Origin: a virus
Taxonomy: Duplodnaviria > Caudoviricetes
Reading direction: 5' to 3' (one strand)
Virus record (IMG/VR): IMGVR_UViG_3300046009_011433
Location: 1 to 37,485 of that record
Length of the DNA: 37,485 nt
This document shows positions 6,402 to 33,193 of this stretch, piece by piece (the stretch's first letter is position 1; every line of letters begins with the position of its first letter). Under the pieces are notes generated by a model. It was not told where the DNA came from and ran no database searches. It saw only the letters and a program-made list of their open reading frames with translations. Position numbers and translations under genes: made by a program.

Positions 6402-6410
6402 GGTCTAAAT

Positions 6411-6438
6411 ACTATAGCAGCGAATAGAGGTTGGTCAA
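6411..6438 (-). promoter_or_regulatory. sigma70-like promoter TTGACC-N16-TATAGT with TG extended -10
   Basis: Read on the reverse strand; abuts a plus-strand CTAAATA at 6405. Confidence 0.6.
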
Positions 6439-6445
6439 GCAATTC

Positions 6446-7030
6446 ATGAAACACCCAAATCAATCATTTATTGACAACTTTAATAGAGCAAACCGGGGAC
6501 CAGAAGGCGTTCCAACCTATCGCTATACTCAAAAATTCATAGAAAAGAAAAGAAAACAAAAGTTTGAGTATTTTGTTGAGTCTTTGAATAACCCCAAACC
6601 AAAGACCAATACTCTTGCACAAGAAATAAATCGAATCTTTTCTTATAATACTCTTTCTAAGAATACCAAAAAAACTTTGTTGGAAACCAAGCAGAGTATT
6701 GGTTCGCTGCCACAACAGTTCAATTATAATGGGTTGCTATACGCATTCAACCAAGAATTGAATATGTATGTCAATCAACATGGTCATGCAATTTCTATTG
6801 AGCAAGCCACGGCTTTCATGGAAATGGCACAACTTGAAGAAGTTGGTTCATTCTCTTCGGAATCTGATACAGATGGGGGATATCAAACGGCTCCGTCTGT
6901 GATTCCAACACCACCCGAAACACCCACAGGTCTGACAGCCTCTGATATAAATATTACAGAAGCCACCTTAACTTGGCAAGATAATTCAATAAACGAAACA
7001 GAGTTTAAGATTTATTATAGAACTGACTAA
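6446..7030 (+). CDS. putative virion anchor protein ending in a half FN3 domain (strands A-B-C)
   Basis: Shares LLE...LPQ..YNGL.Y......NQ.GH.I domain with 10619..13132; ends PTGLTASDINITEATLTWQDNSINETEFKIYYRTD*. Confidence 0.8.
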   Translation: MKHPNQSFIDNFNRANRGPEGVPTYRYTQKFIEKKRKQKFEYFVESLNNPKPKTNTLAQEINRIFSYNTLSKNTKKTLLETKQSIGSLPQQFNYNGLLYAFNQELNMYVNQHGHAISIEQATAFMEMAQLEEVGSFSSESDTDGGYQTAPSVIPTPPETPTGLTASDINITEATLTWQDNSINETEFKIYYRTD

Positions 7031-7031
7031 A

Positions 7032-9692
7032 ATGCCAGACCTAAATCCACTATTTTCAGATCAAATAATAATTGATGGTAATACTTTCATATTAGGCGCA
7101 ACTACAGCGGGATCTGTTAGCATGGGAACTACAAGTTCTGAACTTACTGGTTTGTCATCAGGAACTACTTATTATTTTGCAGTTGTGGCTTTTAGCGATA
7201 TTTCTGGTTATTCGGGTTGGGTTGGTCCAGTTGCGGTATTCACATATCCAAGATTGCCAATTTATGCATTTAGTTGGTCCTGGCCTCATAGCACCCGTGG
7301 TGTGTATGACACTCTTTATTATTCTTCTGGAATAACTCAAAATCTTTTAGCTAGTTCAAATGATTTATTGAACTCTACTGTTTGGAATCAACCAGGTTCC
7401 GGTTATTCATTGTATCATGCAGTTTCAATTACACCACCAGCGGGTATGTCGGCTTTCGGTTTGTCTTTGACTGGTCCTACTGGATATCGTTTTCAACTTC
7501 AAAATCAAGGATATGTTTCTGTTACGGCTGGTGTTACATACACTTATTCTTATTACATAAATGCAACTGAAGGAATTACTCAAAATCTAGATGCAAGAAT
7601 ATCTCATTATTTTGATGGAAATGTCACTGGCACGTTTGCTCCGTTCTTGTATCAGATTGAACCGGAACTAAGAAATAATATTAGTTCTGGAGAATCTACT
7701 TTAACTTTGGGTTTTGCTGGAGCATCTGGGTGGACGAGAGTTCTTGTAAATGTTGTACCAAAAATCAATCAAAAATTAAAAATAAGTTCTTTCCAGATAA
7801 ATGGAACTTTTAATTCTATTCCAGATAAACCATATTATTTTGCAGGATTTAATTTTAATCAAGGTTCTACTCCATCAAATTTTGTCTCTACACCCATAAT
7901 ACCAGAATTTGATTCAAATGTATATGGGAATACCGGAACAACGATTATTTACGATGGAAGTGAATCTTCTTTTTCAAATTTTGGATCTTCTTATGGTTTA
8001 ACTTATATCTATCCTTTAGTTTTTAGTTATGAGTATTTACCTGGAAATAAACATTGGCTATCACCAAATAATATCATTCAATGGCAAAATTCAAATTCCT
8101 TGAAACGATACGCAAGAATTTTAAAAGGATTTTCTCTCGGAACCAGAGCATGTTATCCATCATTTATGAGTGATCGTTGGTTGTGGAATTTGCAAAGTGA
8201 TTTGTTGTCAATGGGATCTTCTGGTGGACAAGTTGGAAATTATTTTAATCAAGATGGAGAAAGTATAAATTACAGTCAGTGCACGAATGAAAACCATTGG
8301 GGTCTATGGATTACTGGTGGTATATGTTTAGGTCAACAAATTTGGAATCAAGTAATGCTTGATTTTACAAATTTAGATTCTTATTGTGACTATTTTATTC
8401 ATAACCAAGAAAATGTAAATGACGCATTTTCTGTGTTCAGCATATATCCATGTTCTGGAAATACGGCAATCCAAAGAACTATTCTAAATGACCCAAGATA
8501 CAAAGAATCTTTCTTTGGTTTAACATCCTGGCAAGATTTTATGTCTTCGTTTGGTGGATGTGGTTATTTAATTCAAGATACGGTATATGATGAAACAGAT
8601 TCGTACATGAGTTGGGAATCGTATGGTGCTGCTTTAATAAGAAAGTCTTTGGATTTAATGGTGATGGGTTATGATTCTTATGATGGTGGAAGATTTAAAA
8701 ATGCAATACAAACAGACGCTTATAGTTATTTTGGGATTGGTGCCATCGATGAAGGATCACCTTCTACATTCGGAATGCATCCGATAAATTACAAATATGT
8801 AATGGGAAATGCTCCATCTCCAACTTTTTATGGTTGGTATTCTTTTGGATGGGAAAATTCAGTATTATATGGTTCAAATTATGATAAAATAAAATTTAAA
8901 GCTTCAGGAGATCCATTATCTGCTGGAGAAACACGACCAAACCCATTCCCAATAGCATGGCTACCATTCTTGTTTGACATGCAAACATTGAGATTGGCAA
9001 AACGAGGAAGTCCAAAACTTCCAATGGTTCCAGTCATTCCGTCACTTCGATTCTACGGTCAACCAAATGCATTACCGGGACAGGATACTTCTTCTACACA
9101 AAGAACCTTTGCTCAAGGTGTCACAGCGGAACGACCAGTTGCTTATTATGCTGATGTAAATGTTGGATACAATCCTGTTGCTGGAATTACATTTACTGTG
9201 GCTGGTGGTAATAGTGCTTATTTCTATGAATTAATAAGACACGCATGTTTATCAGGATCCAGAGCATTTAATTGGTGGAATCCATCGGCATTCTTCAATG
9301 CAGAACTTTGGGGTGCATGTTATGGAACAAACTTTAAACCGATGGACTCTTTGACTATACAATCTGGTATCAATTATGCAAGAGACTATACATTGAGTGG
9401 CGATACAACTTACATATATGACATGCAATATTTGAATAATGTTCTTTCTGATTGTAATTCAAAATTGGGCGGATATACAATAAGAACAAATGTTCTTGAC
9501 AGAATAAATTATACGACAAATTATGTTGTCAGTGGCGCTCCTGGGCCTACTGGAGGTTCGTGGTGGAGAGTTACAATTAAACCAGGAACAACATTTATAG
9601 TGCAAGGAATTACTCTTCCAACAGTAAGTGGAGAAATTGGTTCTTGGTTCTATACATCTGGAAATACTTTAACAGGAATCACACAATTATAA
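7032..9692 (+). CDS. large virion-surface protein: N-terminal half FN3, lectin-like beta-sandwich, conserved AGGNSAYFYELIRH core
   Basis: 886 aa; GLSSGTTYYFAVVAF near the N-terminus; paralogous blocks with 14014 and 17741. Confidence 0.8.
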   Translation: MPDLNPLFSDQIIIDGNTFILGATTAGSVSMGTTSSELTGLSSGTTYYFAVVAFSDISGYSGWVGPVAVFTYPRLPIYAFSWSWPHSTRGVYDTLYYSSGITQNLLASSNDLLNSTVWNQPGSGYSLYHAVSITPPAGMSAFGLSLTGPTGYRFQLQNQGYVSVTAGVTYTYSYYINATEGITQNLDARISHYFDGNVTGTFAPFLYQIEPELRNNISSGESTLTLGFAGASGWTRVLVNVVPKINQKLKISSFQINGTFNSIPDKPYYFAGFNFNQGSTPSNFVSTPIIPEFDSNVYGNTGTTIIYDGSESSFSNFGSSYGLTYIYPLVFSYEYLPGNKHWLSPNNIIQWQNSNSLKRYARILKGFSLGTRACYPSFMSDRWLWNLQSDLLSMGSSGGQVGNYFNQDGESINYSQCTNENHWGLWITGGICLGQQIWNQVMLDFTNLDSYCDYFIHNQENVNDAFSVFSIYPCSGNTAIQRTILNDPRYKESFFGLTSWQDFMSSFGGCGYLIQDTVYDETDSYMSWESYGAALIRKSLDLMVMGYDSYDGGRFKNAIQTDAYSYFGIGAIDEGSPSTFGMHPINYKYVMGNAPSPTFYGWYSFGWENSVLYGSNYDKIKFKASGDPLSAGETRPNPFPIAWLPFLFDMQTLRLAKRGSPKLPMVPVIPSLRFYGQPNALPGQDTSSTQRTFAQGVTAERPVAYYADVNVGYNPVAGITFTVAGGNSAYFYELIRHACLSGSRAFNWWNPSAFFNAELWGACYGTNFKPMDSLTIQSGINYARDYTLSGDTTYIYDMQYLNNVLSDCNSKLGGYTIRTNVLDRINYTTNYVVSGAPGPTGGSWWRVTIKPGTTFIVQGITLPTVSGEIGSWFYTSGNTLTGITQL

Positions 9693-9704
9693 AATGTATG
9701 AACA

Positions 9705-10589
9705 ATGAGTATATTCTTTTCCGGAAATACCTATAACTTTGGTGCAACAGTAGCCGCAAAAATTGGAACTGGAACCACAAGTTATGTATTTTCTGGATTA
9801 AGTTCGGGTTCAGCATATGGTTTTATAATTTGGGCTTTTAATAGTTTTGGTTCATCTCCTATTGTTGGGCCAACTATATTCTTAACCAATGAAATTCCAA
9901 CACCGGAAGATTTTTCAGTTTCTCAGTTTGGTGAAAATGCTGTAATTTTAAATTGGGTTTATGATCCAGAAACAGTAATTGATGGATTTGAAATTTTAAG
10001 AGCAAATAGTCCTCTCATGGGCTTGACATTTGTTGCAAGTGATGTCAGAGGATATATTGATTCTGGTCTTACCAAAGGAATCACATATACATATAGTATT
10101 CAAGCATCATATTCAGGTAATTCTTCAAAACCACCACCTTCGAAATCAAAAACGCTTCCACCATCTCCTGGAGTTGTAGAACCTTCTGAACCGATTGGCT
10201 TTACATTAGCAATTAGTGAAATAAATCTCAATACCGTAATATTAAATTGGAACAAGGGTGAATTGGGCCTTTATGGTGAACCAGATGGATATCAAATTTA
10301 TCGTTCATTGACAGATTCCAACTATAAATTAACTGCTAGTACAACAGGGGCTACAACATATTCGGATTCTTCTCTCATATCTGGATCTACTTACTTCTAT
10401 AAGATTCAATCATACAATTCTGGTGGCCCTTCTTCATTGACAGGTCCTAAATTCATAAGAATTATAGGATATCCACCAAATACTCCTACTGGTTTGACTA
10501 CGCAAAATATAGATGAAAATTCCACTATACTACAATGGAATGATAACTCTATAAATGAAAACTTATTCAAAATTTACTATAGAACTTGA
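9705..10589 (+). CDS. FN3 repeat protein: half FN3 + 2 complete FN3 + complementary half FN3
   Basis: Begins GNTYNFGATV...GLSSGSAYGFIIWAFN; has two LNW...Y.I.R...L..G.TY.Y.IQ units; ends PTGLTTQNIDENSTILQWNDNSINENLFKIYYRT*. Confidence 0.85.
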   Translation: MSIFFSGNTYNFGATVAAKIGTGTTSYVFSGLSSGSAYGFIIWAFNSFGSSPIVGPTIFLTNEIPTPEDFSVSQFGENAVILNWVYDPETVIDGFEILRANSPLMGLTFVASDVRGYIDSGLTKGITYTYSIQASYSGNSSKPPPSKSKTLPPSPGVVEPSEPIGFTLAISEINLNTVILNWNKGELGLYGEPDGYQIYRSLTDSNYKLTASTTGATTYSDSSLISGSTYFYKIQSYNSGGPSSLTGPKFIRIIGYPPNTPTGLTTQNIDENSTILQWNDNSINENLFKIYYRT

Positions 10590-10600
10590 TTTCGAACAAA

Positions 10601-10608
10601 TATAAATA
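10601..10608 (+). promoter_or_regulatory. canonical T4 late promoter TATAAATA
   Basis: Exact match, 10 nt before ATG 10619. Confidence 0.7.
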
Positions 10609-10618
10609 GGAATAGTCC

Positions 10619-13132
10619 ATGGATCGCAATATTCTTCGCCAATATCTTTCGGGTCTCGCAGGAGCCAATAACCGTTTTCTTTTAGAGAATTCACGGTATC
10701 TTGGAAATCTTCCGCAAAACATCGTGTACAACGGATTGGTTTATACACTAAATCTCCGTGAAAATGCATTCATGAATCAATTTGGTCACAGAATTGATCC
10801 AAGTGCTGCATCTGCATTTATTACTGAAGCAAGAGCCTTTGAACAACAGAATTTGGCTATCTTGGACATTTCTTCAAGTTCTTCTGACAATAGTTCTTCA
10901 AGACCAACTCCAGAAAGTGGAGCAGTAACACCACAGAATCTTAATGCTAATCCAGATCCTAACGACACAACTACAGGTGTTATCGTTACCTTCACAATTG
11001 ATGATCCTGAAAAAGCAGATACTTTTATACTTTTCCGTGCAACAGATCCAAAGGGACCCTTTACTCAAGAAAAAGTTGATCTCAATAAGTTTACAAGAGC
11101 CTTTATTGATGAAGGTTTAACTCCTGGAACAACATATTATTATCAGGTTGCTGCTGTATTGGACGGTAAGCAAGGACCAACATCTGAGGTTGTATCCGTT
11201 ACAACTGATACTATCAAACCACCTTCAATTGGTATTACAGCACCTAGTGGATTAACTGCCACTTCAATTGTACAAAATAGAGTTGATCTTGCTTGGACTG
11301 ATAATTCCACAAATGAACTTGGATTCTATCTATATCAATCCTTGAATGGTTCATCATTTACTTTAATCGAAGGATTGGTTGCAGGAGCCACAGAAACCTC
11401 TGTAAAGGGACTTTCTCAAGACAGCAATTACTGGTATCGTGTACAAGCCTTTGCAACAGGAAGCACATCTGCATTCTCCAATACTGTTGCTTTGAGAACT
11501 CTTCCAACTCTGCCTGCTGCTCCCAGCAATCTTTCATTGTTGGTTGGTGGAACTTCACAAATTCAAGTTTCTTGGACAGACAACTCCACAAACGAACAAT
11601 TTTTCAATCTTTTCCGATCAACAGATGGGGTTTCATATCCATTCGGAATCACGCTCCCCGCAGGATCTACAACCTACTTGAACACAGGTTTGAGCGCTGG
11701 AACCACTTATTTCTACAGAGTAAATGCTGCAAATACCGGAGGAACTTCAGGATTCGCTGGTCCAGAATCTGCAACAACTCTTGGAATAACAATTGCAGCA
11801 CCAACATTGCTTTCAGCATATTCCTCGGTACCAGCAACTAAAAACTTCTTAAGATATACTGAAGGATTTACCACAGCAGTATCTTTGGCTAATGGTGGAT
11901 GGACTGCTGCATCTGGTGGATCGTCTACCACAGTAAGCATTGATAATTCTATTCTTGCACCAAATGGAACTACAGGCGCAGCACTTTTGACAGTAAATTC
12001 ACCTGTTGTAATAGGTGGCATTCATAGTATAGTCTCTGAACCCGGTATCACCGCAAATGATTACTGGAGTGGTTCAGTATGGCTCCGTGGAAAAACTGCT
12101 ACCATTGGTGGAATAAATGTTGTTGTACGAGCTGGTACTAACCAAAATGTAATTCCATCTACACTCAAAATTTTGAGTGGTCCCGGAACTGTTGTTACAA
12201 GTTCAGTTGGTGAGTCACACTGGAATGGTGTAGTAGGACTTAGCAAGACAGAATGGACAAGAGTTGCTTGGAACAATACTTCACCATGGGGTGTTACAGG
12301 ATCGGGTGGAACATACACAGATGTTCTATTGCGTTTGACTGTAAACTTCTACGATGGATCTATTCCAAGTGCAGTTACAGGGGATTCTATCTACGCTTGG
12401 GGCGCTCAATTCGAAAGAAACCCTTATCCAACAGAATATCTTGCAGCAACAGGTGGTTCGTTCTCCGAAAGACCGTTCCAAGGTCTTACTTCTCAAATAA
12501 ATCTTTATTGGCAAGATAACAGCACAGATGAAACTGGATTCTCCGTAGAGCGTTCTACAACTCTAGGTGGTGTTTATAGTGGAATCACATTACTTCCAGC
12601 TAATACCACAGTCCACAGTGATCGTGGATTGTCTGCAGGATCAACTTACTTCTATAGAGTAAGAGCCTTCAAGCCAGGTGCAACTTCAGGATTTGCAGGA
12701 CCAACATCTGCAGTCACATATCCTACTGTTCCTGCAACCCCAGCATTTACATCAATTTTAGCAGGATCTTCCTCACAAATTAATATAAATTGGACAAATG
12801 TTGCAAATGAAACTGGATATAACCTATATCGCTCATTGAATGATGTAAGTTATACTGGAATCACAACATTGGGTTCTGATGTAACTGGCTTCACCAACAG
12901 TGGTCTATCAGCAGGAACAACTTATTTCTATAAGATTGAAGCATTCAATGTGGGTGGTACTTCTGCTCTATCGGGTGCAACAAGTACAATTACCTTGCCA
13001 GCAGGAACAACACCATCTGCTCCAACAGGATTCACTGCACTTTCAGCCACAGACAGCACAGTAACTCTGCAGTGGACAGATACATCTACCAATGAAGATG
13101 GATTCCTGATTTACTACAGAGGAATAACCTGA
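10619..13132 (+). CDS. FN3 repeat virion protein: anchor domain, about 5 FN3, inserted lectin-like domain, terminal half FN3
   Basis: Repeated APSxL...WTDNSTNE.GF...GLSAGTTYFYRV; ends WTDTSTNEDGFLIYYRGIT*. Confidence 0.9.
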   Translation: MDRNILRQYLSGLAGANNRFLLENSRYLGNLPQNIVYNGLVYTLNLRENAFMNQFGHRIDPSAASAFITEARAFEQQNLAILDISSSSSDNSSSRPTPESGAVTPQNLNANPDPNDTTTGVIVTFTIDDPEKADTFILFRATDPKGPFTQEKVDLNKFTRAFIDEGLTPGTTYYYQVAAVLDGKQGPTSEVVSVTTDTIKPPSIGITAPSGLTATSIVQNRVDLAWTDNSTNELGFYLYQSLNGSSFTLIEGLVAGATETSVKGLSQDSNYWYRVQAFATGSTSAFSNTVALRTLPTLPAAPSNLSLLVGGTSQIQVSWTDNSTNEQFFNLFRSTDGVSYPFGITLPAGSTTYLNTGLSAGTTYFYRVNAANTGGTSGFAGPESATTLGITIAAPTLLSAYSSVPATKNFLRYTEGFTTAVSLANGGWTAASGGSSTTVSIDNSILAPNGTTGAALLTVNSPVVIGGIHSIVSEPGITANDYWSGSVWLRGKTATIGGINVVVRAGTNQNVIPSTLKILSGPGTVVTSSVGESHWNGVVGLSKTEWTRVAWNNTSPWGVTGSGGTYTDVLLRLTVNFYDGSIPSAVTGDSIYAWGAQFERNPYPTEYLAATGGSFSERPFQGLTSQINLYWQDNSTDETGFSVERSTTLGGVYSGITLLPANTTVHSDRGLSAGSTYFYRVRAFKPGATSGFAGPTSAVTYPTVPATPAFTSILAGSSSQININWTNVANETGYNLYRSLNDVSYTGITTLGSDVTGFTNSGLSAGTTYFYKIEAFNVGGTSALSGATSTITLPAGTTPSAPTGFTALSATDSTVTLQWTDTSTNEDGFLIYYRGIT

Positions 13133-13133: not shown

Positions 13134-14000
13134 ATGTCTAGTGTATTTTTTAACGGGAACACATATACCTTTGGAGCCACAGTTGCCGCAAATCCGGGAA
13201 CTGGGACGACTTCACATGTATTTGGTGGATTGAGTTCTGGGTCTACATTTGGATTTATTTTAAGAGCCTTTAATGATTTTGGGTTCTCAAATTTTGTTGG
13301 TCCTTCAATAATTAAAACTTTATCGGAAACTCCAGAAGAAATTCGTCCATTGATTTCTGCATTAGAGTGGAATTCCCCATATGAACCTATTGCAACAACA
13401 ACTGTTTATGTTGATCCATATGATTTAGAGAATCAAAATTTGTTCATGTCTAGTGAGAATTTAATTCCATTTACTATTGGTGGCCCACCAATACAATACG
13501 GCTGGGAACCCGCACCACCTACAATTACACCACCTATGAGCATAACAAGTGGATTCAGTGCTCCAGATGGCTCTACAACTGCATGGCAATTTACTAGTAG
13601 TTCTGCGACAGGATGGGGATTACTAAAGAGAATGTCCCTAGACACAGGAAAAACTTATTATCTTTCGTATTATTATGATTTGTCAAGAGGAAACACTGGA
13701 ACCTTTATAGGTTTGGGAGGAATGTATTGGGAAGGTGGAATCTTACCTTCCATAAGATTCCAACCATTCCGACAAATTCTTCCTGTTGTTGGATCTATGG
13801 TCACCGGAGGATCAAACATAACACAAATTGGTTCTGCTACAGGTTGGACACGGTTTGCTTGGGAATTTAATACAATATCTGGATATTCAGATGGATCTCG
13901 TTTAGTTATGGGTATCATGAGTGTAGTAAGAGGAGCGGATTTTGGTTTAGGTACTGCAGCTAGATATTTCTGGGGACCACAATTAGAATTAGCGGAATAA
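13134..14000 (+). CDS. half FN3 + lectin-like beta-sandwich protein
   Basis: Begins GNTYTFGATV...GLSSGSTFGFILRAFN; QNLFMSSE...APDGSTTA...WTRF...WGPQLE module. Confidence 0.8.
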   Translation: MSSVFFNGNTYTFGATVAANPGTGTTSHVFGGLSSGSTFGFILRAFNDFGFSNFVGPSIIKTLSETPEEIRPLISALEWNSPYEPIATTTVYVDPYDLENQNLFMSSENLIPFTIGGPPIQYGWEPAPPTITPPMSITSGFSAPDGSTTAWQFTSSSATGWGLLKRMSLDTGKTYYLSYYYDLSRGNTGTFIGLGGMYWEGGILPSIRFQPFRQILPVVGSMVTGGSNITQIGSATGWTRFAWEFNTISGYSDGSRLVMGIMSVVRGADFGLGTAARYFWGPQLELAE

Positions 14001-14013: not shown

Positions 14014-17000
14014 ATGAGCACCGGACCAACACCATATAATCCTACTATAGATAATCCTGTTTCAAGAACAGTTTCAACAAAAACTTATTACTATGATTCA
14101 TTCGGAAATACTTTATATGATGTTTCTTATCAAAATAGATTAAATTATATTGTAAGTTCTGGAAATACGTATACTGCTCCATTTTTTAGTGCAGGTTTGA
14201 ATGGAAATTATTTTGAATTGGCTGCAAGAAGTGGAATAACTTTATCAGATCCAGCCTACACAGATATTGAAATAATGAAATTGTTGCCAAAAGAAAAACG
14301 AGCAATTCAACCGTTTGCTTATAATGGTTCTCGTTTATGGTTATTTGCTGAAGACGCAACAATACTTCTTGGAAATGGTATGACTATGTTTGGTATTACG
14401 GGTGGTGCTTTTGTAAAACCAAATAGTTATTTGGGATTTTGGCCAGATTTTGGAATTTCTTATACTAGCGAATATGTTAGACAAGTAGCTGAGAGTATGT
14501 CACAGCAGGGGGCGACTTTACAATATATTATGATTGACCAAGAAGGAGAAGAAGTATATTTTAAAGATGAAAATGGAAATATTTCTTCACCTCTCGTTAA
14601 CTGTGTAACAGGAGGAACATTTTATACAAGCGGGTGGAGAGGATTATCTTCTTGGTTAGATTATTATCTTTTTGAAGGTGGTAACACATCATATAATTTT
14701 CTTGGTGATTCTGCAGAGGCATCTACAAATCGTATTGCTTGGTTGGCTGCTTGGAATCGATATAAAAATAAAGCTTTTGAACAAGCATTTTTACCTGAAT
14801 TGTTAAATTATAATTCTGATAGCGCAGTGAGCAATTATAATGACTGGATTACACTACCAAAAACAACTTATAATTCTTTTAATTATTTGGGTGAATATGC
14901 TAGCCCAGAAAGTTTAGAAAACCGTGCAATATCTGGTAATGCACAATCTCCTGTGATATATGGTTGGTTTACCAATGGACCGTTGGTAGAACAATTAAAT
15001 TACGATTTTTCTCAGGATACACCAGCCGTATCAGCTTTAGATCCCACTGTAATTTTTAACAGAACTTTTTCATATAAAAATTCACTACTTGATAAATTTT
15101 TTACTTCAGGGCCTTGGAGTAGTTTTATTTCTGTTGTTTCAGAAATGAAAGAAGCAAAAAGAAATGCTCCAAATTCACCAATAACTCCATGGATTCCTTC
15201 CGTAATGCAAGCAGGTCAATATAATTTGAACTATGGTTCAATATATAAATATGAAGCTCCGTGGCTAAAAAGTAACACGCAAATGCCAGCTGTCGCTGCA
15301 CACAATCGATGGAGATTCAGAAACATTAGTTCAGAAACAAGCGGCTTTAGTGGTCCTTTAAGTTCAACTGGAGGAATAAGAATCGTTTCTGGTACTACAT
15401 CTGCAGTAAAGTCTCTGTATTATGTATACAATGGGTTAACAAGCGGAATTACTTATGTATTTTCTTACTATGTAAATCTAGGATGTGGTTACACTGGTTT
15501 TGCAGCAGGTTTCAATAATTATACCAAAAATAATTATGGCATACCGACTGGAATAACATATTATCAATCATTACCATCTGCCACAGGTCCATTTTATAAC
15601 ACTGGTCCAATATATTATCCACCGGGTACATCGGATTGGACAAAGGTTGAATTTAAATTTAATCTTCCTTCTCCAGATCCCAAAAATGATGATATCTTTA
15701 ATCCAACTTTAGAGGTTTCAGTTATTGATGAATCCACTACAAGTGGATTGACATTGACAATGTTTATTGCAGACCCATCATTTGAAATAGAATCTTCACC
15801 ATCAAATATTTCAGTTATATCAATGACTCCAATTGTATCTGAACAAAATAAAATACAAGTATCAAAATGGTCTCCATGTGGTTTTGCTGATGTAAAAATT
15901 GGTTATAATCCCAAACTTGCTCTATATCTAACAGATAGAGCGGGAAACAGTGCATATTTTTATGAAATGATTCGTCATTGTTGCTTATTGGGAACAAAGG
16001 CATTTGGTTGGTTTAATGCTTTTTCCTTCATAGATAATTCATATCCCGGTGCCATAAACATAGGATTTGCTGGACAAGATGCTTTGGGTGCGGCAAAACA
16101 AAATCTAACATTAACAAATGGTTTCACTGGTTTCTTGGATGAATATAAATTACTAAATGAAACTTTACATGATGTTCATCAAAAAATAGGAGGATTCACA
16201 CTTACTACTGCTGGTGCAACTGATAAATGGAATTGGTCTTTGCCATATTTTGCATCTGCTGCACCAGACACAAGAGGACAAACTTGGTGGTGGAGAATTA
16301 CTGCCCAAAATGGTTACACATTATATGTAAACGGAATGACTTTACCTGATGCAAATGGAAGTGTTGGAATGTGGTTTGGAACAACTGGACCAACCTTGGC
16401 TGGAGTTTCCATAACATCGACACAGCCAATTCCTCCATCAGAACCCACTGGAATTACTGCTGTCAGAGACTTTAATTTCCTACAAATGAATTCTTTGGCA
16501 GATTTGACCGGAAATTCTCTTTCATTCAGCAGAGGTGGAACAGCATCCTATATTGGTCCAAGTGGTTATTTGTTATTCGCTGGATCAAATGTACCAAGAT
16601 TCCATTATGATCCAGTTACTTTGACAAAGCGTGGATTATTAATAGAAGCATCTGTTGCCAATCAATTAAACTGGAGTGAGTCTTTTGCATCAACTGGTGG
16701 TATACAAAACAACTGGATTTATACAAATCTTGTAGGTGTTTCTGGAAATACATCCCCATCCTTGGATCTTAGCGCAATAAGATTTACAGCAACTGGGGCA
16801 AATGCAACTCTAATTTCTTCAAGTGCAGTTGGAAACACAACAAATCCAAAAATTTTAAGTTTCTGGTGCAAAGGTATAACAGGAACAGAAAGTCTTTCTT
16901 ATACAGTAGATGGTGGTACTTTATGGAATAGTGTTTCAAAACTAAGTGGTTCTTGGAACCGAGTTTATTTTGGACCAATTTTTAATGGAAATTGCTATTT

Positions 17001-17718
17001 TGGTCATCGGGTTGGATTTAGATTGGGGAATACAAATGATTCAGTAATGATTTGGGGTGCACAACTTGAAAATAGTAAAACGGGAACAAATCCAAATGAT
17101 TTGGTTAGAACAGAAAACCCAGACATGTATGGATTCAATCAGGAAACATCGTACATAAAAACAGAATCTACTACTGTAACAAGATCTGCAGATTCATTGG
17201 CATTTGTTGGTGCCACTACTTGGATTGGTGCTACATATGGAACTCTTTTAATTGAAGAAGAAAATATGAACTTTAATTCTGGTGGTCGGTTTACCATATT
17301 TGGATTTACTGCTGCCTCAAGTACAATACCTGGAAATCATTGGATTGGTCCAAGAACTGATTCTTTCTTATATCAATCAGGAGATGGAAGTGTTAACCGT
17401 TCAAATGGTTTTAGTTGGTGTTATAAAAATAGATATCATGCAAGGGATACACAACACAAATGGTTCTTCTCTTGGTCTCCTTATGGTTATAAATGGGGAG
17501 CAAACAGTAGAATAAAAAGTATTGCTCAAAATATAACACCTCTTACAATAATCTCATCTTTTAATTTTCCAAATGAAGGAACTATGGTTCGTGTTAGATA
17601 TTTTGATAAAGTTTTTAGTAACGATATCACCAGACAATTTGCTTTAGGTGGTGTAACACAAATTGGTTGGCTAAACAATGGTGATGGTATAGTTCCACCT
17701 TCTACTGATTATCCATGA
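14014..17718 (+). CDS. large virion-surface protein with AGNSAYFYEMIRH core and C-terminal head-spike/fibre-like domain
   Basis: 1234 aa; C-terminal FSRGGTASY...PRFHYDP...GLLIEAS..N...WGAQLE...TSYIKT...VTRSAD is a recurrent phage fibre module. Confidence 0.8.
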   Translation: MSTGPTPYNPTIDNPVSRTVSTKTYYYDSFGNTLYDVSYQNRLNYIVSSGNTYTAPFFSAGLNGNYFELAARSGITLSDPAYTDIEIMKLLPKEKRAIQPFAYNGSRLWLFAEDATILLGNGMTMFGITGGAFVKPNSYLGFWPDFGISYTSEYVRQVAESMSQQGATLQYIMIDQEGEEVYFKDENGNISSPLVNCVTGGTFYTSGWRGLSSWLDYYLFEGGNTSYNFLGDSAEASTNRIAWLAAWNRYKNKAFEQAFLPELLNYNSDSAVSNYNDWITLPKTTYNSFNYLGEYASPESLENRAISGNAQSPVIYGWFTNGPLVEQLNYDFSQDTPAVSALDPTVIFNRTFSYKNSLLDKFFTSGPWSSFISVVSEMKEAKRNAPNSPITPWIPSVMQAGQYNLNYGSIYKYEAPWLKSNTQMPAVAAHNRWRFRNISSETSGFSGPLSSTGGIRIVSGTTSAVKSLYYVYNGLTSGITYVFSYYVNLGCGYTGFAAGFNNYTKNNYGIPTGITYYQSLPSATGPFYNTGPIYYPPGTSDWTKVEFKFNLPSPDPKNDDIFNPTLEVSVIDESTTSGLTLTMFIADPSFEIESSPSNISVISMTPIVSEQNKIQVSKWSPCGFADVKIGYNPKLALYLTDRAGNSAYFYEMIRHCCLLGTKAFGWFNAFSFIDNSYPGAINIGFAGQDALGAAKQNLTLTNGFTGFLDEYKLLNETLHDVHQKIGGFTLTTAGATDKWNWSLPYFASAAPDTRGQTWWWRITAQNGYTLYVNGMTLPDANGSVGMWFGTTGPTLAGVSITSTQPIPPSEPTGITAVRDFNFLQMNSLADLTGNSLSFSRGGTASYIGPSGYLLFAGSNVPRFHYDPVTLTKRGLLIEASVANQLNWSESFASTGGIQNNWIYTNLVGVSGNTSPSLDLSAIRFTATGANATLISSSAVGNTTNPKILSFWCKGITGTESLSYTVDGGTLWNSVSKLSGSWNRVYFGPIFNGNCYFGHRVGFRLGNTNDSVMIWGAQLENSKTGTNPNDLVRTENPDMYGFNQETSYIKTESTTVTRSADSLAFVGATTWIGATYGTLLIEEENMNFNSGGRFTIFGFTAASSTIPGNHWIGPRTDSFLYQSGDGSVNRSNGFSWCYKNRYHARDTQHKWFFSWSPYGYKWGANSRIKSIAQNITPLTIISSFNFPNEGTMVRVRYFDKVFSNDITRQFALGGVTQIGWLNNGDGIVPPSTDYP

Positions 17719-17740: not shown

Positions 17741-20700
17741 ATGTCCTCTATAATATTTGAAGGCAACACCTACACTTTTGGAGCCACAGTCTCGGCAAAT
17801 TCGGGAACTGGGACAACTTCATATATCTTCACATCTCTAACACCCGGAAGTACATATGGATTCATAATATGGGCCTTTAATGGATTTGGATCTTCATCTA
17901 TTACAGGCCCGGTTACAAAAATAACTCTTTCAGATGAAACAAGACCAGTAATTTATATATTTTCAGAATATTGGCCCTCCACTTATGTTACTGGTGGTTC
18001 AGAAATTATTTATTCAAATTACAGCACCGAATCTTTAACAAATTTATTAATGCCTAGTCAGGCACCAATAAAATTAATTTATGATACAATTTGGGACCAA
18101 GTAAATAATTCAAGTCTTTTTGTTTCTAAGGGAATTACGAGTCCAATAGGAGATACAACCGCGTCATTACAATGGTTAAAGCCATTTACTACTGGTGTTT
18201 CCTTTCCACAAACTCTTACTGGTAGTGACACAAAAGGATATGCCAAAACACGAATTGGAGTAACTTCTGGTTCAACTTATACATTTTCATTTTACTTAAA
18301 TTATGATTTGGGTTCTGCGCCTTTAATTCTTGGTAATTGTGCTGGATGGACCAATTCTAATCATATAAAAATGGATTGGCGTGGGGCGACATCTCCAACA
18401 GCCTTTTTCGGGACAAGTATAGCAACTACACAAATCCTTCCTGTTTCTACAAATAATTCAGGATTGTCTTTAGGTGTTGGACTAACCTCTTGGCAAAGAC
18501 TAGCATATAATCTTTATTTTCCACCGGGAATCAGTTATGCGCTTGGATATTTTTTATTAAGTGATTCTAGCGCCAGTTCTCAAATAAAAGCAACTGGTCA
18601 TACTTTTGCAATATGGGGTTTACAATTAGAAATTGGAACTGGACCATCTACTTATAGTCCAAATATTTTAGATTCATATAACTATGAAACTACTCAATCC
18701 CATGATAATTTATTTTGGAATTTCACTCCTCAACAAGGCATGACTTATATTTGGCCGCAAGTATTAACGCAAGTATATAAATTTGATGGTTCTAGGCCAA
18801 CCAAAGATAATGCTGTAGAACTTGGTGGTGTTTTTTGGAATAATTATGATATAAATCAAGATCAGGTAATGTCTAATAATGTTAAATTATTAAAAGGTTT
18901 ACCCTCTAATAGAAAATCAATTCGTCCTTATGGTTATGATATATTTCCTTTTGATTCTTTTGTAGAGGATCGTTTGGGTACTGGCACAACAGGAATGAAA
19001 GGAACATGGAAATTTTATTCAAATAATTTTTCACTTACTGGCACAACTGGATATTATCCAAGTTTATGGCCTGTTGCTGGAATAAGTGCAGGATTATCTG
19101 CGTTTACTCAATTTTTTAGTTATCTTGGAAATACATTATCAGAATTAAATTATATTCTTTCAGATAGAGAAGGTGTAGTATTTGATTTCTTGCCTGTTGC
19201 ACCTTCTAATAATTTTGCAGTTGATCCAATTCATTTTCAAAATACAATAAAGTCTGATGCAAGATATTATCAATCTTGGTATGGGTTGTCTGCTATATCA
19301 GAAATGATTATTGAGAGTGGGATAACATTAGATTCCAACTTTACTGATTTATATTTTAGTAAAGTGGGATATGCTTGGCAAGCAATATCACATTCTTATG
19401 CAGCAAGAGCAGCAAATCAATTTTTAAAACCATCGTTGCAACAATATTATCCAAATGCATATTTTGCTGATTATGGTGAATTTTATAGTGATAAAAATTA
19501 TTTTGATGGACCGGGTACTGGACCATCTTTCTTGAGAAGAGAACCTGTAACCAATTCATCGGCACCAGTTTTATACGCTACAAATTCAGTAAATGGAATA
19601 AGTTTATGGGCTATAGATACAAGATATACTGATGAATATCAAAGATATATTCTAGATCCTGCCCAGACTAATAAATTATTAATTAGTGAAAATTATGATA
19701 TCACACCACCATGGTACAAAGGTGATGCAACTGGAATCACTACATTTAGATCTGGAACATCATTGCTTAATAAAGGAATTCAAGATCCTTTGGATACTTT
19801 TAGGTCTTATAATTTAATTGATGGTGCAACTACTAATTCATCTAGTATGTTGGACCATTATATTTCATATGATACTGGCTATGTAGGTAACAATTACAAT
19901 ATAGCTGGAAGTACATCACATACTTTATCGACTTATTTTAAATCTGGATTGACAAATGGTGCAACATGGGGTGTGATGACTTGGGTTCATGGTGGTGGTT
20001 CCAGACTTTTTGCTGGTACTGTTGTATTTGATATTAAAGGTGGAACGGTTGCTAATTCAAAAGTTGGTTTTAATCTTTCTGGGGGTTCTTATTCTTGGGG
20101 AATTACTTTAGCTGGAAACAGTTGGTATCGTTGTTGGATGAATATTCAAGGTTACACCGCATCATCTTATGAATTGAGTTTATACCTCGGGCATTCAAAT
20201 ACAGCATCACCAACGTATGAAACAACAGGAGCAGCATATCAAAGAGTAATGTATGGAAATTCGGGTGGAAGAGAATTATATATTTGGGGTTCTCAATTAG
20301 AAACTGGTGTTACAGAACCTACTGAATATTCAGCAAGAGGTGGATCTTTTTCAACTGATGCTTCTATAAATTTACCAAATGATGGTTGGCTTGCCTTTAG
20401 TACGGAGATTCAAAATTTAAGAGGAATAAAAAGAGCCAGTCCAACAACACCAATTATTCCTTGGATAGGAAATGTTTCTTGGCCCGGTGATAATTTAGTT
20501 GGACAAACTGTTACCAGACCCAATATTGGTTGGTCAGACACAAAACAAGGTTATAATCCAAAACAAGGATGTACATTTACAATCGCTGGTGGAAATTCTG
20601 CTTATTATTATGAATTTATAAGACATTTATTATTACACGGTATCCCATCAATTTCATTATGGCCCGGAACGGTATTTTCATATGAAAATTTAAGTAATCA

Positions 20701-21022
20701 AAGTTATTTTGATGCTGGATATACTACCTATATTCAAGAATATAAAGATTTAGATAGTGTCATTCATGATGTCAATGATAAAATTAAAGGATTCACATTA
20801 ACAACCGCAGAGACTTCAAGAATTGATTATTTGGCAAAATATGTTGCATCTGGTGCACCCGGACCAAAGGGTATAACTTGGTGGTGGAGAATCACTGTAG
20901 GAGTAAGTGGAAGCAGAGTTTTAGTAAATGGTATTACTTTAGATAGTTTAAATGGACCTTATGGAACTTGGATTTCCACCACAGGACCAACTTTGGCTCA
21001 TGTGCCGATAACAATTTTGTAA
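17741..21022 (+). CDS. large virion-surface protein: half FN3, two lectin-like modules, AGGNSAYYYEFIRH core
   Basis: 1093 aa; begins GNTYTFGATV...LTPGSTYGFIIWAFN; contains WGLQLE and WGSQLE modules. Confidence 0.8.
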   Translation: MSSIIFEGNTYTFGATVSANSGTGTTSYIFTSLTPGSTYGFIIWAFNGFGSSSITGPVTKITLSDETRPVIYIFSEYWPSTYVTGGSEIIYSNYSTESLTNLLMPSQAPIKLIYDTIWDQVNNSSLFVSKGITSPIGDTTASLQWLKPFTTGVSFPQTLTGSDTKGYAKTRIGVTSGSTYTFSFYLNYDLGSAPLILGNCAGWTNSNHIKMDWRGATSPTAFFGTSIATTQILPVSTNNSGLSLGVGLTSWQRLAYNLYFPPGISYALGYFLLSDSSASSQIKATGHTFAIWGLQLEIGTGPSTYSPNILDSYNYETTQSHDNLFWNFTPQQGMTYIWPQVLTQVYKFDGSRPTKDNAVELGGVFWNNYDINQDQVMSNNVKLLKGLPSNRKSIRPYGYDIFPFDSFVEDRLGTGTTGMKGTWKFYSNNFSLTGTTGYYPSLWPVAGISAGLSAFTQFFSYLGNTLSELNYILSDREGVVFDFLPVAPSNNFAVDPIHFQNTIKSDARYYQSWYGLSAISEMIIESGITLDSNFTDLYFSKVGYAWQAISHSYAARAANQFLKPSLQQYYPNAYFADYGEFYSDKNYFDGPGTGPSFLRREPVTNSSAPVLYATNSVNGISLWAIDTRYTDEYQRYILDPAQTNKLLISENYDITPPWYKGDATGITTFRSGTSLLNKGIQDPLDTFRSYNLIDGATTNSSSMLDHYISYDTGYVGNNYNIAGSTSHTLSTYFKSGLTNGATWGVMTWVHGGGSRLFAGTVVFDIKGGTVANSKVGFNLSGGSYSWGITLAGNSWYRCWMNIQGYTASSYELSLYLGHSNTASPTYETTGAAYQRVMYGNSGGRELYIWGSQLETGVTEPTEYSARGGSFSTDASINLPNDGWLAFSTEIQNLRGIKRASPTTPIIPWIGNVSWPGDNLVGQTVTRPNIGWSDTKQGYNPKQGCTFTIAGGNSAYYYEFIRHLLLHGIPSISLWPGTVFSYENLSNQSYFDAGYTTYIQEYKDLDSVIHDVNDKIKGFTLTTAETSRIDYLAKYVASGAPGPKGITWWWRITVGVSGSRVLVNGITLDSLNGPYGTWISTTGPTLAHVPITIL

Positions 21023-21033: not shown

Positions 21034-21885
21034 ATGATCGTCAAAAGAGGAAATAAGTTCGTTGTAATGGATTCCGAAGGAGAAAAAGTCCTTGGAACCC
21101 ATGAAACCAAACAACAAGCAGATAAGCAACTGACTGCTATTCATATTTCTCAAAAGAAAAGAAAATCACTCAAAGAGTTTCTTGAAGAGACTTCTCAACT
21201 CACTCTTCAATATCACGACCAACTGAATCCAAATCTTTGGGAAAACAACAAACTAAAGGAAGAAGTAAAAAATAAACTTCTTCAAATAGCCGATGTATGG
21301 GCAAAGTTTGCAAAGATTCCTTCAGAAGCCATAGAGGATGTATTGGTTGTTGGAGGAAATGCAAACTTCAACTACACACCATATTCTGACATAGACCTCC
21401 ATGTTCTTGTAGACAAGTCAAAGATTGCAGACTGCCCAGAAATACTTGATGAATACCTCAAAGACAAGAAGCAACTATGGGCACATTCACACGACATAAA
21501 GATCTACACCCATGATGTTGAGATCTATGCTCAAGACATCTCAGAGCAAGTTCCAGCCAACCAAGGTTCCTACAGCCTCACACAGAACGAATGGCTCAAG
21601 GAACCCAAACAAGAAGAAGTAAATTTGGAAGATCCTGAAATTTCATTGAAAGTAAATGAACTTATTCATAAAATTGAGGGTATGATTTCTTCCAAAGCAA
21701 GTGACGAATCTTTCACAAAATTGAAGGAAAAGTTCCGTACAATGAGATCTGCGGGCCTAAAGAAAGCAGGAGAATTTTCAGTTGAAAATTTGGTATTCAA
21801 GGAACTTCGAAATCGTGGATACTTGGATAAAGTGAATGATTACATTCTCAGCACACAAGACGAAAATCTAAGCCTTAAAAATTAA
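21034..21885 (+). CDS. phage nucleotidyltransferase (pol-beta-like fold)
   Basis: GGNANFNY...SDIDLHV...VEIY motif (G[GS]..DxD..E). Start revised to ATG 21034, 5 nt after ATAAATA. Confidence 0.75.
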   Translation: MIVKRGNKFVVMDSEGEKVLGTHETKQQADKQLTAIHISQKKRKSLKEFLEETSQLTLQYHDQLNPNLWENNKLKEEVKNKLLQIADVWAKFAKIPSEAIEDVLVVGGNANFNYTPYSDIDLHVLVDKSKIADCPEILDEYLKDKKQLWAHSHDIKIYTHDVEIYAQDISEQVPANQGSYSLTQNEWLKEPKQEEVNLEDPEISLKVNELIHKIEGMISSKASDESFTKLKEKFRTMRSAGLKKAGEFSVENLVFKELRNRGYLDKVNDYILSTQDENLSLKN

Positions 21886-23373: not shown

Positions 23374-23640
23374 TTATCTCTCTACGAATGAAACCCAATC
23401 TTGATGAACTACATGGTTACCAGCGTAACCATCCTTGATCTTGCTGACATCCCACCAGATTACATCGCCAACCTGAATGTCTTCGGTGAGTTTATTACCG
23501 ATTGACTCTACCTTTGCAGGAATGATTTTTGAGGATGACTTCTCGTTGTATATGATCCCTGCTGTAGTGGTCTTTTGACCACCAATCAAAGATTTTGCGA
23601 GTATCCATTTGCCTACTGGTTTCATTTGTTTGTCTTTCAT
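23374..23640 (-). CDS. groES: GroES/Cpn10-like co-chaperonin
   Basis: MKPVGKWIL...KTTTAGII...AKVESIG...IQVGDVI matches the Cpn10 pattern. Confidence 0.75.
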   Translation of the reverse strand: MKDKQMKPVGKWILAKSLIGGQKTTTAGIIYNEKSSSKIIPAKVESIGNKLTEDIQVGDVIWWDVSKIKDGYAGNHVVHQDWVSFVER

Positions 23641-24338
23641 ATTTGAATTCCTAAAACTTTACATCGTTTTCTTATAGCATTATCTGAAACATTAAAAAGT
23701 TTTCCAATTTGTGTAAATGGTTTATTTTTTACTAATGTTTCTAATTCTTCTTTTGTTACTTCAAATTTTTTATTTCTAATACTTGAAGAACATTTTTTAC
23801 ATAGTTTTGATTTATGATGAATACGACAATTACAAGACGGACATAGATTATATTTTTTAAATTTTTTCCCAGCGTAAGTATCGGTTTGTGAATGGCAATT
23901 TGGACACAAAAATCTTAAATTGTTTATACGATTATCAGTACCATCTCCATTTATGTGATCTAAATGAAGAGATAAAGTTTTTCCATTCCATTCATTATGT
24001 AAATTACATAAAGCACATTTTTGTTCTATTAATTTATCGATCAAAATTCTTTTTCTTATTGAATTTCTTGTAAATATTGAATTTTGACAAAACATTTGAT
24101 CAAAGGGAGTTCTTGTTTTTGTAATCCATGTTTTATTTTTATTTGCACCAATTCCCAATTGAATATGACTAAAATCTATATTATCAGCTTCCAGTCTAGA
24201 TTTTAATGTTTTATAGTTTCCACCCTTATTAGATAAACCAAAATGTAATAGTATACAAGAAACAGTTGAACAATTTTTTACAATATTTTCTAAACTATCT
24301 TTTGATATTTTCCATATTGGAGAATGTTTTTTCTTCAT
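23637..24338 (-). CDS. HNH endonuclease (free-standing, homing-like)
   Basis: CALC...LHLDHINGDGTDNRINNLRFLCPNCHSQTDT motif with C-terminal zinc finger and HTH; very AT-rich. Confidence 0.9.
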   Translation of the reverse strand: MKKKHSPIWKISKDSLENIVKNCSTVSCILLHFGLSNKGGNYKTLKSRLEADNIDFSHIQLGIGANKNKTWITKTRTPFDQMFCQNSIFTRNSIRKRILIDKLIEQKCALCNLHNEWNGKTLSLHLDHINGDGTDNRINNLRFLCPNCHSQTDTYAGKKFKKYNLCPSCNCRIHHKSKLCKKCSSSIRNKKFEVTKEELETLVKNKPFTQIGKLFNVSDNAIRKRCKVLGIQI

Positions 24339-24387: not shown

Positions 24388-24458
24388 TTCCCTTGAAACG
24401 ATTCGAACGTTTACACTTAGAATCAAAGTCTAATAGGCTACCGTTACCTCACAAGGGA
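24388..24458 (-). tRNA. tRNA-Gln(TTG)
   Basis: TCCCTTG/CAAGGGA acceptor, TTAGA-CTTTGAT-TCTAA anticodon arm, AAACG-TTCGAAT-CGTTT T-arm. Confidence 0.85.
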
Positions 24459-25004
24459 GTGAACCTTGGCACAATAATTGTTCATTATGATGCCAGAGGC
24501 AGTACCAACATTGATACTTCTTACAGAACCATACTGAGGAATGTAAAGAAGATCATCACACATATCTAGAACATTTGCAGGAACTCCAATTTGCTCCTGC
24601 CCAAAGATCATAATATAATGCACATTTGGGTCAAAGTCAAATGCATTTATGTCTTTTGCTTCACAAACATTATCAATTCCCAATAGTTTAACCTTGCCTT
24701 CATACTGGGAAACAATTTCTTCAATGTAGGAGCCGAGATTGTCAATGCTTTTGACATGACGGAAGTTTGTGTAGTGATGAGTACCGACAGTCCCTCGCCT
24801 ATCGTATTTCTTATTCCCATAGATTACTACTTCTTTCGCCAGAAACGCATTAGCATTCCGTATAATGGTTGCAATATTAAAATCGTTACCAATGTTGCAG
24901 CAGATAACAGAAAAGTTATGGCGCTTAGTCTCAAGATCAGCTCTGATCGCGTCATCTGTCCAATATTTATAGTGATCAATAAGGTTGCGGGTTTCCATAT
25001 TCAT
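24444..25004 (-). CDS. TrmH/SpoU-family RNA 2'-O-methyltransferase
   Basis: NIATIIRNANAF, IFGQEQIGV and IPQYGSVRSINVGTASGI SPOUT motifs. Confidence 0.9.
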   Translation of the reverse strand: MNMETRNLIDHYKYWTDDAIRADLETKRHNFSVICCNIGNDFNIATIIRNANAFLAKEVVIYGNKKYDRRGTVGTHHYTNFRHVKSIDNLGSYIEEIVSQYEGKVKLLGIDNVCEAKDINAFDFDPNVHYIMIFGQEQIGVPANVLDMCDDLLYIPQYGSVRSINVGTASGIIMNNYCAKVHSLVR

Positions 25005-25396
25005 CCAATATTTCCATACCCCATACCACGAACAAAGAAATGCTCTTCGTGGCGATTAAAACCAAAGCATTCTCTTGCATAATCAAGAACAATCATCTTG
25101 TCAAATTTATTGCAGGAGTATACATCAAGAGTAATGAAACGGCTTGGTTCGATTGAATGGATTTGAATACCACTTTCAATCAGAGGAACCCAAGCACTGA
25201 CACCCAATTTATCAGGATAAAGTTCTTTTCCATCTTTTGTAGGGCCGTGAATGACAATAGGCTGACTCATGCGGGTCATACCGATCTTATCAACAACTCG
25301 TTCAAGAAAGCGGTAGTGTAGTTCTAGATCATCTGCTGCACCAACACGACAATTATACATATCCAAATAATAGGAATATCCGAATGGCTTACTCAT
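25001..25396 (-). CDS. speD: S-adenosylmethionine decarboxylase-like proenzyme
   Basis: GVSAWVPLIESGIQIHS...ITLDVYSC; the ES self-cleavage site is present. Confidence 0.8.
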   Translation of the reverse strand: MSKPFGYSYYLDMYNCRVGAADDLELHYRFLERVVDKIGMTRMSQPIVIHGPTKDGKELYPDKLGVSAWVPLIESGIQIHSIEPSRFITLDVYSCNKFDKMIVLDYARECFGFNRHEEHFFVRGMGYGNIG

Positions 25397-28631: not shown

Positions 28632-28637
28632 GGCCAT

Positions 28638-29739: not shown

Positions 29740-29763
29740 AATTCAAGGAAAATAAATAATATT

Positions 29764-30498
29764 ATGCAACACTCAAACGAACACAAGCAATCAAAAATTT
29801 TGGTCGAAGGCATGATGTACGGGGGTTTTCCAAGAATTGCCAAGACAAAGCAAGAATTGCTGAACGAACTCAATGTTTATTCTCCACTTGAAACAGCAGC
29901 CGTATCTCCTGCTGAACAAGAACAAAGAGCCTACGGAGAACACACACCAGCTTCAGAGAGAGCATTGAGAAGAGGTGATTTGCTGACTCACATGAGAGCC
30001 GCACAAATACACCCAGACTCAACAATGGAAGAAATGGATGCAATCGAAAGAGTGTTGATGGATGCAAGAGTCAAAGACGGAAAGATGGCGTCTGCCGATC
30101 ATGCCAAAATTGCATTGAGAGCAGTTGAAAGATTGAGAGACAACAAGGGCTTTGACAAGATCGTCAAGCACTTGATTTCTCAGCATATGCCTTCTGCTGC
30201 AGCAACAGAAGTTTCTTCCACTCCTGCAAAATTTAATGAAGTTGGAGCACCTGCCGTTGACGAATATGATTTGGGAACAATCGAAACAAGAATTGGCAGA
30301 GAAATCGGAAGAACAAAGGCAGGCTCAGACGTAAGTTCATTCGCCGCAGATGTCGGTAGACGAGCCTACAAGACATTCAGACCACCATCGGAAAGTTGGG
30401 GTTTGATCAAGAGAATTCGTGACGCAAGAGAAATGCAGGATGTTGTTAGAAAATCTGCTGTCAGAACTGCAGATGCAATTGTTAGAGACATCAGATGA
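29764..30498 (+). CDS. late hypothetical protein with SKILVEGMMYGGFPR leader
   Basis: 244 aa; ATAAATA 5 nt upstream. Confidence 0.7.
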   Translation: MQHSNEHKQSKILVEGMMYGGFPRIAKTKQELLNELNVYSPLETAAVSPAEQEQRAYGEHTPASERALRRGDLLTHMRAAQIHPDSTMEEMDAIERVLMDARVKDGKMASADHAKIALRAVERLRDNKGFDKIVKHLISQHMPSAAATEVSSTPAKFNEVGAPAVDEYDLGTIETRIGREIGRTKAGSDVSSFAADVGRRAYKTFRPPSESWGLIKRIRDAREMQDVVRKSAVRTADAIVRDIR

Positions 30499-32087: not shown

Positions 32088-32088
32088 T

Positions 32089-32550: not shown

Positions 32551-32554
32551 TCTT

Positions 32555-33187: not shown

Positions 33188-33193
33188 TTAAAC

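Follow-up and report, generated by a model that had tools for sequence, protein, structure and literature searches.

Complementary fibronectin type III half-domains in a freshwater phage gene cluster, with gene C as a candidate spacer

Described joints that complete a beta-sheet in trans

In Lactococcus phage Tuc2009, the C-terminal hairpin of BppU completes the sheet of BppA domain 2, and the composite titin-like domain formed in this way hangs a carbohydrate-binding module on the virion (PMC4742702, in the excerpts available). The gene cluster described here may be like it in the mode of joint: a C-terminal piece would complete the beta-sheet of a second phage protein. The Tuc2009 excerpts describe a two-strand hairpin of ∼25 residues, one donor, and one acceptor, whereas in our cluster and its relatives three strands (A, B, and C) face four strands plus a hairpin. 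Donors and acceptors each occur as several paralogs here, donors can stand in tandem, an acceptor may lie at the N or the C terminus, and some pieces are double ended.

When a fibronectin type III (FN3) monobody is split at its CD loop, the resulting peptides refold on 1:1 mixing, with a Tm of about 45 versus 78°C (PMC11666773, in excerpt, citing Dutta et al. 2005). This engineered split FN3 has the same fold and the same cut after strand C as our locus; it is artificial, comprises one pair, and has reduced stability, whereas the natural second halves add a hairpin and the halves are under selection. Because the split monobody refolds and BppU completes the BppA sheet, folding in trans has good prior plausibility.

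Chaperone-usher pili and TasA fibers likewise use an incomplete beta-sandwich that is completed by a neighbor, and they comprise a base, an extender, and an adhesive tip; the excerpts of PMC10903470 describe one N-terminal donor strand, an Ig-like pilin, secreted subunits, and long homopolymers. Unlike these fibers, the system here would exchange half-domains of FN3 and is phage encoded, and a homopolymer is hypothetical for it. An earlier reading of this DNA from its letters alone (the sequence-only reading) had likened gene C to donor-strand complementation in chaperone-usher pili. The comparison survives as an analogy: the completion logic agrees, but three C-terminal strands are donated rather than one N-terminal strand. 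The fold is FN3 rather than that of an Ig-like pilin lacking its last strand, and we found no chaperone or usher among 26 proteins of the window (Pfam) or subsets of them (PHROGs and NCBIfam), the window being the whole virus record of 37,485 bases, a genome fragment. By analogy, the split-FN3 joint may work like donor-strand complementation and the BppU-BppA joint. Our literature search, which covered few subscription journals, returned no natural FN3 domain cut after strand C with double-ended extenders.

Gene C and the single-half genes around it

The window sequence occurs in lake and freshwater metagenomes and resembles part of the genome of a large T4-like phage, judging from DUF7207/phrog_407, TAAATA motifs, and proteins that begin MKxFKQF. 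The features of its fiber cluster are as follows; "tail" denotes the first half of an FN3 domain and "head" the second.

6446 to 7030, plus strand: gene A, 194 aa from ATG (199 aa from TTG at 6431), N-terminal module (6686 to 6877) and tail (6899 to 7027)
7032 to 9692, plus strand: gene B, 886 aa, head of the B class (7062 to 7250) and C-terminal glycoside hydrolase barrel-like region
9705 to 10589, plus strand: gene C, 294 aa, head-FN3-FN3-tail (ORF, Pfam, HMM, AlphaFold model, and full-length relatives)
9705 to 9893, plus strand: C head of the E/G class, extra hairpin plus strands C′, E, F, and G (HMM positions 43 to 88 of 92)
9894 to 10160, plus strand: intact FN3 domain a of C (Pfam and model)
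10182 to 10460, plus strand: intact FN3 domain b of C (Pfam and model)
10461 to 10586, plus strand: C tail, strands A, B, and C, ending at the stop codon (HMM)
10619 to 13132, plus strand: gene D, 837 aa, N-terminal module (10679 to 10870), FN3 stalk, head-spike-fiber-like domain, and tail (12998 to 13129)
13134 to 14000, plus strand: gene E, 288 aa, head and head-spike-fiber domain
14014 to 17718, plus strand: gene F, 1234 aa, head-spike-fiber domain and no FN3 half
17741 to 21022, plus strand: gene G, 1093 aa, orphan head and head-spike-fiber domain
21034 to 21885: nucleotidyltransferase-like gene (phrog_36119), the downstream border of the variable fiber cluster

The sequence-only reading had given gene C the order second half, FN3, FN3, first half, and this order is borne out by an FN3 HMM, Pfam, an AlphaFold model, and four full-length relatives. 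The HMM has 92 positions and was built from eight intact repeats of this locus and a relative; it includes the whole domains of C and D and is thus tuned to the family, not to the halves. The last 42 residues of C correspond to HMM positions 2 to 35 (strands A, B, and C; 26.2 bits) and the first 64 residues to positions 43 to 88 (C′, E, F, and G; 24.9 bits). Pfam fn3 (PF00041) matches C in two stretches (62.6 bits; cut-off, 25), and the model contains seven-strand domains at residues 68 to 150 and 164 to 252 with a mean pLDDT of 83.7; it was run with a 16-row alignment, and its pTM of 0.45 leaves the domain orientation uncertain. The top PDB fold matches were FN3 tandems, and fold searches gave generic FN3 tandems only. 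The C head has an extra N-terminal hairpin (residues 2 to 5 and 8 to 11 of the model) that intact repeats lack. A proline-rich linker of ∼8 residues joins the two whole domains of C, the other two linkers having only a few residues.

As a chance control, 116 ORF ends in the window were scored; seven exceeded 20 bits, and the next best reached 2.8. The seven comprise three tails, at the ends of A, C, and D, and four heads, at the starts of B, C, E, and G. The statement that the gene upstream of C does not end in a first half and that the gene downstream does not start with a second half also holds (0.1 bits for the C-terminal end of B and −2.1 bits for the N-terminal end of D), but the same reading missed the context, namely, the five neighboring genes with single halves, A, B, D, E, and G. 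The architecture of C is not an assembly artifact, because run X5 yields contigs that span both the B|C junction (9525 to 10058) and the C|D junction (10537 to 11005) with zero differences and a diverged contig of run X7 covers 9550 to 10872 with 57 substitutions and zero gaps; neither run carries a flag as a potential source. The X7 strain differences in C comprise at least 9 synonymous and at least 5 nonsynonymous codons.

A and D have in common a 64-residue N-terminal module with no match in Pfam, PHROGs, NCBIfam, Atlas, or PDB sequences. Its modularity, domain labels, and context suggest a virion (capsid) anchor; it could be a packaging signal instead. LLE/LEE motifs, which may resemble T4 prohead-protease sites, flank the module.

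The head-spike-fiber domain (NF048003) is common to D (33.8 bits, under the cut-off of 36), E (36.8), F (42.1), and G (50.8), a location on the head being hypothetical for this phage. In RcGTA, the head-spike-fiber protein binds capsular polysaccharide, and the abstract describes no split FN3 coupling (PMC10218006). As a lead only, the C-terminal region of B is glycoside hydrolase (GH)-like: its Atlas feature matches (0.91 to 0.94) include GH-named clusters, with structure rows under the naming bar. Because NF048003 domains occur in D to G, the RcGTA protein binds capsule, and B has GH-like leads, we infer an external appendage that would reach or cut the host capsule, its putative virion location being read from domain labels and context, with the head-spike-fiber domains and the TAAATA motifs as indirect pointers.

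TAAATA motifs lie just 5′ of many plus-strand genes in the window, and several window proteins begin MKxFKQF. We take TAAATA to resemble the T4 late promoter and the MKxFKQF starts to be likewise T4-like; a literature search on these two likenesses returned no match. The window total of 31 TAAATA motifs against 35.3 expected is no overrepresentation, and only their placement before gene starts stands out:

6406 to 6411, plus strand: TAAATA upstream of A
10603 to 10608, plus strand: TAAATA 16 nt upstream of D
13998 and 17728, plus strand: TAAATA before F and before G, respectively

The 40 nt before B and those before C contain no TAAATA, and C is without its own motif in all three loci checked. 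Since the motif precedes A and is absent before B and C, A-B-C is likely one late transcript; from motif placement, C thus appears to be cotranscribed with A and B and not with D.

Complementarity of the halves and the level at which they would join

Four full-length relatives (P0002 to P0004 and L023:1578-2456, the last with the same B-C-D order) keep the architecture of C at 55 to 68% identity, and their clusters hold 3, 1, 8, and 4 members. Other loci are arranged differently. L001 lacks C, and L007 has one tail and one head; in L003/L004, a record about 20% complete, A carries a pair of tails in tandem, the B type is represented by two genes, and C is truncated. Tandem tails are found in L003, L008 and L026 (two each), L027, L056, and P0029. 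Proteins of 107 to 108 aa consist of a head and a tail only (L027:342-665 and L056:8302-8628; also P0028 and P0199), a circular permutation of FN3 with ∼5 residues between strands G and A. Four protease-like proteins from three loci carry the head at the C terminus, 370 to 415 codons in, and in three of the four a proline-rich linker precedes it:

L037:10351-11694, C-terminal-head protein
L056:6826-8292, C-terminal-head protein
L056:8628-9992, C-terminal-head protein
L059:7589-8893, C-terminal-head protein

Trypsin-like motifs (LISPKH and GDSG) were recognized by eye in these proteins; Pfam Trypsin reached an E value of only 0.051, under the cut-off, and PDB sequences gave no match. Elsewhere the N-terminal module is fused straight to payloads with no halves (L005, L040, L049, L052, and L066). 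D stalks are between 391 and 1492 aa long; the 1492-aa stalk, P0198, has the two whole domains of C covalently inside it, and P0005 is likewise a D-type stalk fusion.

Across gene products, tails cover HMM positions 2 to 36 and heads 39 to 91 of 92, so that two gene products carry complementary parts of one domain, an arrangement that recurs in 12 clusters; the cut falls after strand C, at the same place throughout tails and heads. In all four full-length relatives, the halves (head, 67 to 87% identity; tail, 76 to 82%) are better conserved than the whole domains (FN3a, 53 to 66%; FN3b, 43 to 63%), and dN against L023 is 0.13 and 0.18 for the halves and 0.30 and 0.37 for the whole domains. The halves are therefore not relics.

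The sequence-only reading had proposed a homodimer structure prediction; the one complex predicted here paired the isolated halves, and C tail plus C head scored 0.45, against 0.00 for the best of three controls. Runs of this pair agree in at least 97% of contacts, the partner pLDDT is at least 69, and the tail, which has a pLDDT of 38 beside an unrelated partner, reaches 69 to 70 beside the head. In calibration, 116 of the 157 solved complexes passed the mark, as did 2 of the 215 mismatches; passing scores not above 0.60 were obtained for only 18 of the 157 solved complexes yet for both of these mismatches. The model thus lends weak support to pairing of the C tail with the C head, which may pass by likeness to solved FN3 domains. 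The predictor cannot show a self-preference of C, since near relatives of true partners pass as well (10 of 12 colicin pairs). There is no Cys in C and no invariant Cys or Lys across 26 tails and 31 heads that could form a covalent lock, and the joint would therefore be noncovalent. The proposed completion of FN3 in trans is well supported by the comparative evidence and weakly by complex prediction.

We weighed the reading that the halves do not complement each other but are separate small modules, with tandem tails packing and heads folding alone, or relics. Heads do carry an extra conserved hairpin, one control left the head at a pLDDT of 62 with an unrelated partner, and a truncated C exists in L003. 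Against this reading, all 12 clusters tallied with one half type also have the other, in equal numbers in five and, more in its favor, unequal numbers in seven (four of the 12 are cut by contig ends or poorly assembled). The constant cut site, the rise of the tail pLDDT with the head, and the finding that the halves are the most conserved parts of C likewise speak against it, and we judge it improbable.

More improbable still is that C satisfies itself, as a cis ring or a closed reciprocal dimer that would serve as a soluble unit or reservoir. Both halves do sit on one chain with the proline-rich linker between the whole domains, but the other two linkers have only a few residues. The best AlphaFold model, for all the uncertainty of its domain orientation, leaves both halves unpaired: no beta pairing is assigned to head strand E or tail strand C, and both have their partner strands in the other half.

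A further account has continuous chains arise at the DNA level (inversion or recombination), at the RNA level (splicing), or in translation (frameshift, readthrough, or hopping). The gaps at A|B and D|E are both 1 nt, and the DNA encoding the heads and the tails consists of diverged repeats of 66 to 77% identity, as such joining might have it. However, 15 tail|head gene junctions show all three frames (offset +1 in five, +2 in six, and 0 in four), the junction in L008 has several in-frame stops, the heads of C and G have no upstream tail (F, the neighbor of G, carries none), and C-terminal heads and tandem tails cannot be joined in this way. No near-identical DNA repeats lie at the junctions, and in four DNA runs no contig joins a tail to a nonadjacent head, although contigs drop rare variants. 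Given the three frames, tandem tails, orphan heads, and C-terminal heads, frameshifting or readthrough is very unlikely from the sequences, which do not have the form of a programmed fusion, and gene-level joining as a whole is extremely improbable. The spread of frames, C-terminal heads, and tandem tails instead argue for a plug-and-socket kit at the protein level, with pairing after translation.

Gene C as a probable spacer or a possible self-polymer

We consider it probable that C is an in-line spacer or adaptor in the split-FN3 kit, added as one or a few units. The C head would pair with the tail of a stalk protein that bears an anchor, and the C tail with a payload protein's head, each pairing restoring one FN3 domain; the halves would fold together in trans after translation into one noncovalent domain. 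A and D would attach to the virion through their common N-terminal module; B, E, and G would be glycan-binding or glycan-cutting payloads. Each copy of C would add two whole FN3 domains and one reconstituted domain, most likely in the order D-C-B or A-C-B, and usually only one or a few copies would be added, since single-ended partners cap the chain.

The order is suggested by the classes of halves. Heads fall into a B class and an E/G/C class (a 22-row clade with support of 99/100), and the C head is 67 to 68% identical to the E and G heads and 44% identical to the B head. The C tail is 60% identical to the A tail and 43% identical to the D tail, in a tail tree with few resolved branches (2 of 23 starred). 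Similarities among tails track those among their neighboring heads (Mantel r, 0.81 for 12 pairs and 0.74 for 15 pairs). Similarity profiles match at 0.87 for D tail plus C head and 0.80 for C tail plus B head, within the range of seven well-sampled neighbor pairs (0.75 to 0.90), and at 0.11 for C tail plus C head (0.15 to 0.27 in relatives); this class statistic fails for 8 of the 15 true neighbor pairs, those of sparsely sampled classes, which score only −0.37 to 0.70, and its rows are kin. The pattern predicts the order D-C-B, but as a test it is weak, and it can come from joint duplication of neighboring genes without binding specificity. The apparent shared transcript of C, A, and B and, in the incomplete record L003/L004, an E-class head on a truncated C without a D tail in the cluster hint at cross-class binding, by which C-C chains would also be permitted. 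Placing the tail of the 107-aa mini-protein in a class with the tails beside C-terminal heads found no support (41% identity to L037A versus 38 to 41% to others).

The sequence-only reading had described C as a self-extending filament or a length-tuning linker. The linker is favored by the comparative evidence; the filament is possible but not the best reading, since five single-ended partners would cap it and the head and tail of C belong to different neighbor-pair classes, the head to that seen next to D-type tails and the tail closer to that seen next to B-type heads. In its strongest form, C would be mainly self-polymerizing: all tails would fit all heads, and C in excess would build bead-chain fibers of variable length, with A or D at their start and B, E, or G as caps. 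Several observations agree with it besides the weak model support for the C-tail/C-head pair: core positions are common to the classes, a single type of head in L008 stands opposite two tails of just 59% identity, and the L003 cluster has its E-class head without a D tail. FN3 termini lie at opposite poles of the domain, and the ∼5-residue G-to-A linker of the 107-aa proteins is too short for self-closure. Other observations weigh against it. L056 has exactly three tails for three heads, C is without a TAAATA of its own, and the passing of close cousins by the predictor gives no proof of self-preference. A step-growth estimate with three cap types and equal expression, assuming interchangeable joints and completion, gives 0.33 C units per chain, and a mean of 10 units would need about 30 copies of C per three caps. 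We regard a mainly self-polymerizing C as unlikely. The self-pair score of 0.45 possibly reflects FN3 likeness, the class pattern argues against a homopolymer, and nothing in the comparison or the model points to a preference of C for itself. Even if the classes pair freely, capping by single-ended partners would, on this simple estimate, limit chain length except where C is in large excess. A plug-in spacer or adaptor thus remains the best reading; C alone may still oligomerize in the tube.

A wider proposal, which we hold to be rather doubtful, is a chaperone-free kit made from one halved FN3 domain, in which tandem tails would branch, heads would cap, and double-ended pieces (C and the 107-aa unit) would polymerize head to tail, with the extender/cap ratio setting fiber length and partly orthogonal classes directing the placement of enzymes and lectins. 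If the halves do snap together, phages could swap, branch, and lengthen appendages by moving a 40-residue tail and a 60-residue head from gene to gene, with no need to reengineer trimeric fibers; this would provide a mechanism for the fast turnover of host recognition modules in freshwater phages and explain why such genes look like fragments in annotation. The halves would be the natural, evolved counterpart of the CD-loop split FN3 of protein engineering, possibly with orthogonal classes and a stabilizing hairpin, and could be useful as a peptide-protein coupling set; the 107-aa head-plus-tail protein would be a minimal test object for polymerization by half-domain exchange.

Distribution and other genes of the window

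Of 30 pattern matches in GTDB genome contigs, 0 were confirmed as relatives, and 50,697 GenBank phage records contained none; in a profile search with the head alignment against 1.84 billion representatives, the best 150 were all long multi-FN3 proteins. Among 80 loci around the nucleotidyltransferase gene, 14 have a half, FN3, or anchor match and 66 have none; the gene itself is 96 to 98% identical in four relatives whose fiber clusters differ. In a scan with P0004 as the query, C in a cluster without D was returned only in truncated form. One such copy, L003:9995-10489, has a head and one FN3 domain but no tail and lies directly before the nucleotidyltransferase gene; it may be a cap or a decaying copy. 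In L009:9971-13804, homologues of B and D appear as strings of short ORFs; neighboring unrelated genes are broken up in the same way, which looks like assembly frameshifts rather than biology.

Downstream of the fiber cluster, the minus strand of the window carries an HNH endonuclease-like gene (23637 to 24338), a SpoU rRNA methylase gene (24444 to 25396) adjoining an S-adenosylmethionine decarboxylase-like gene, and a C-5 cytosine DNA methylase gene (27528 to 28637). A plus-strand gene run at 28690 to 36479, with several MKxFKQF-like starts, includes a GP88-family protein, a methyltransferase, and, at 31183 to 31788, an ADP-ribosyltransferase-domain protein; the proteins of this run are possibly packaged internal proteins.
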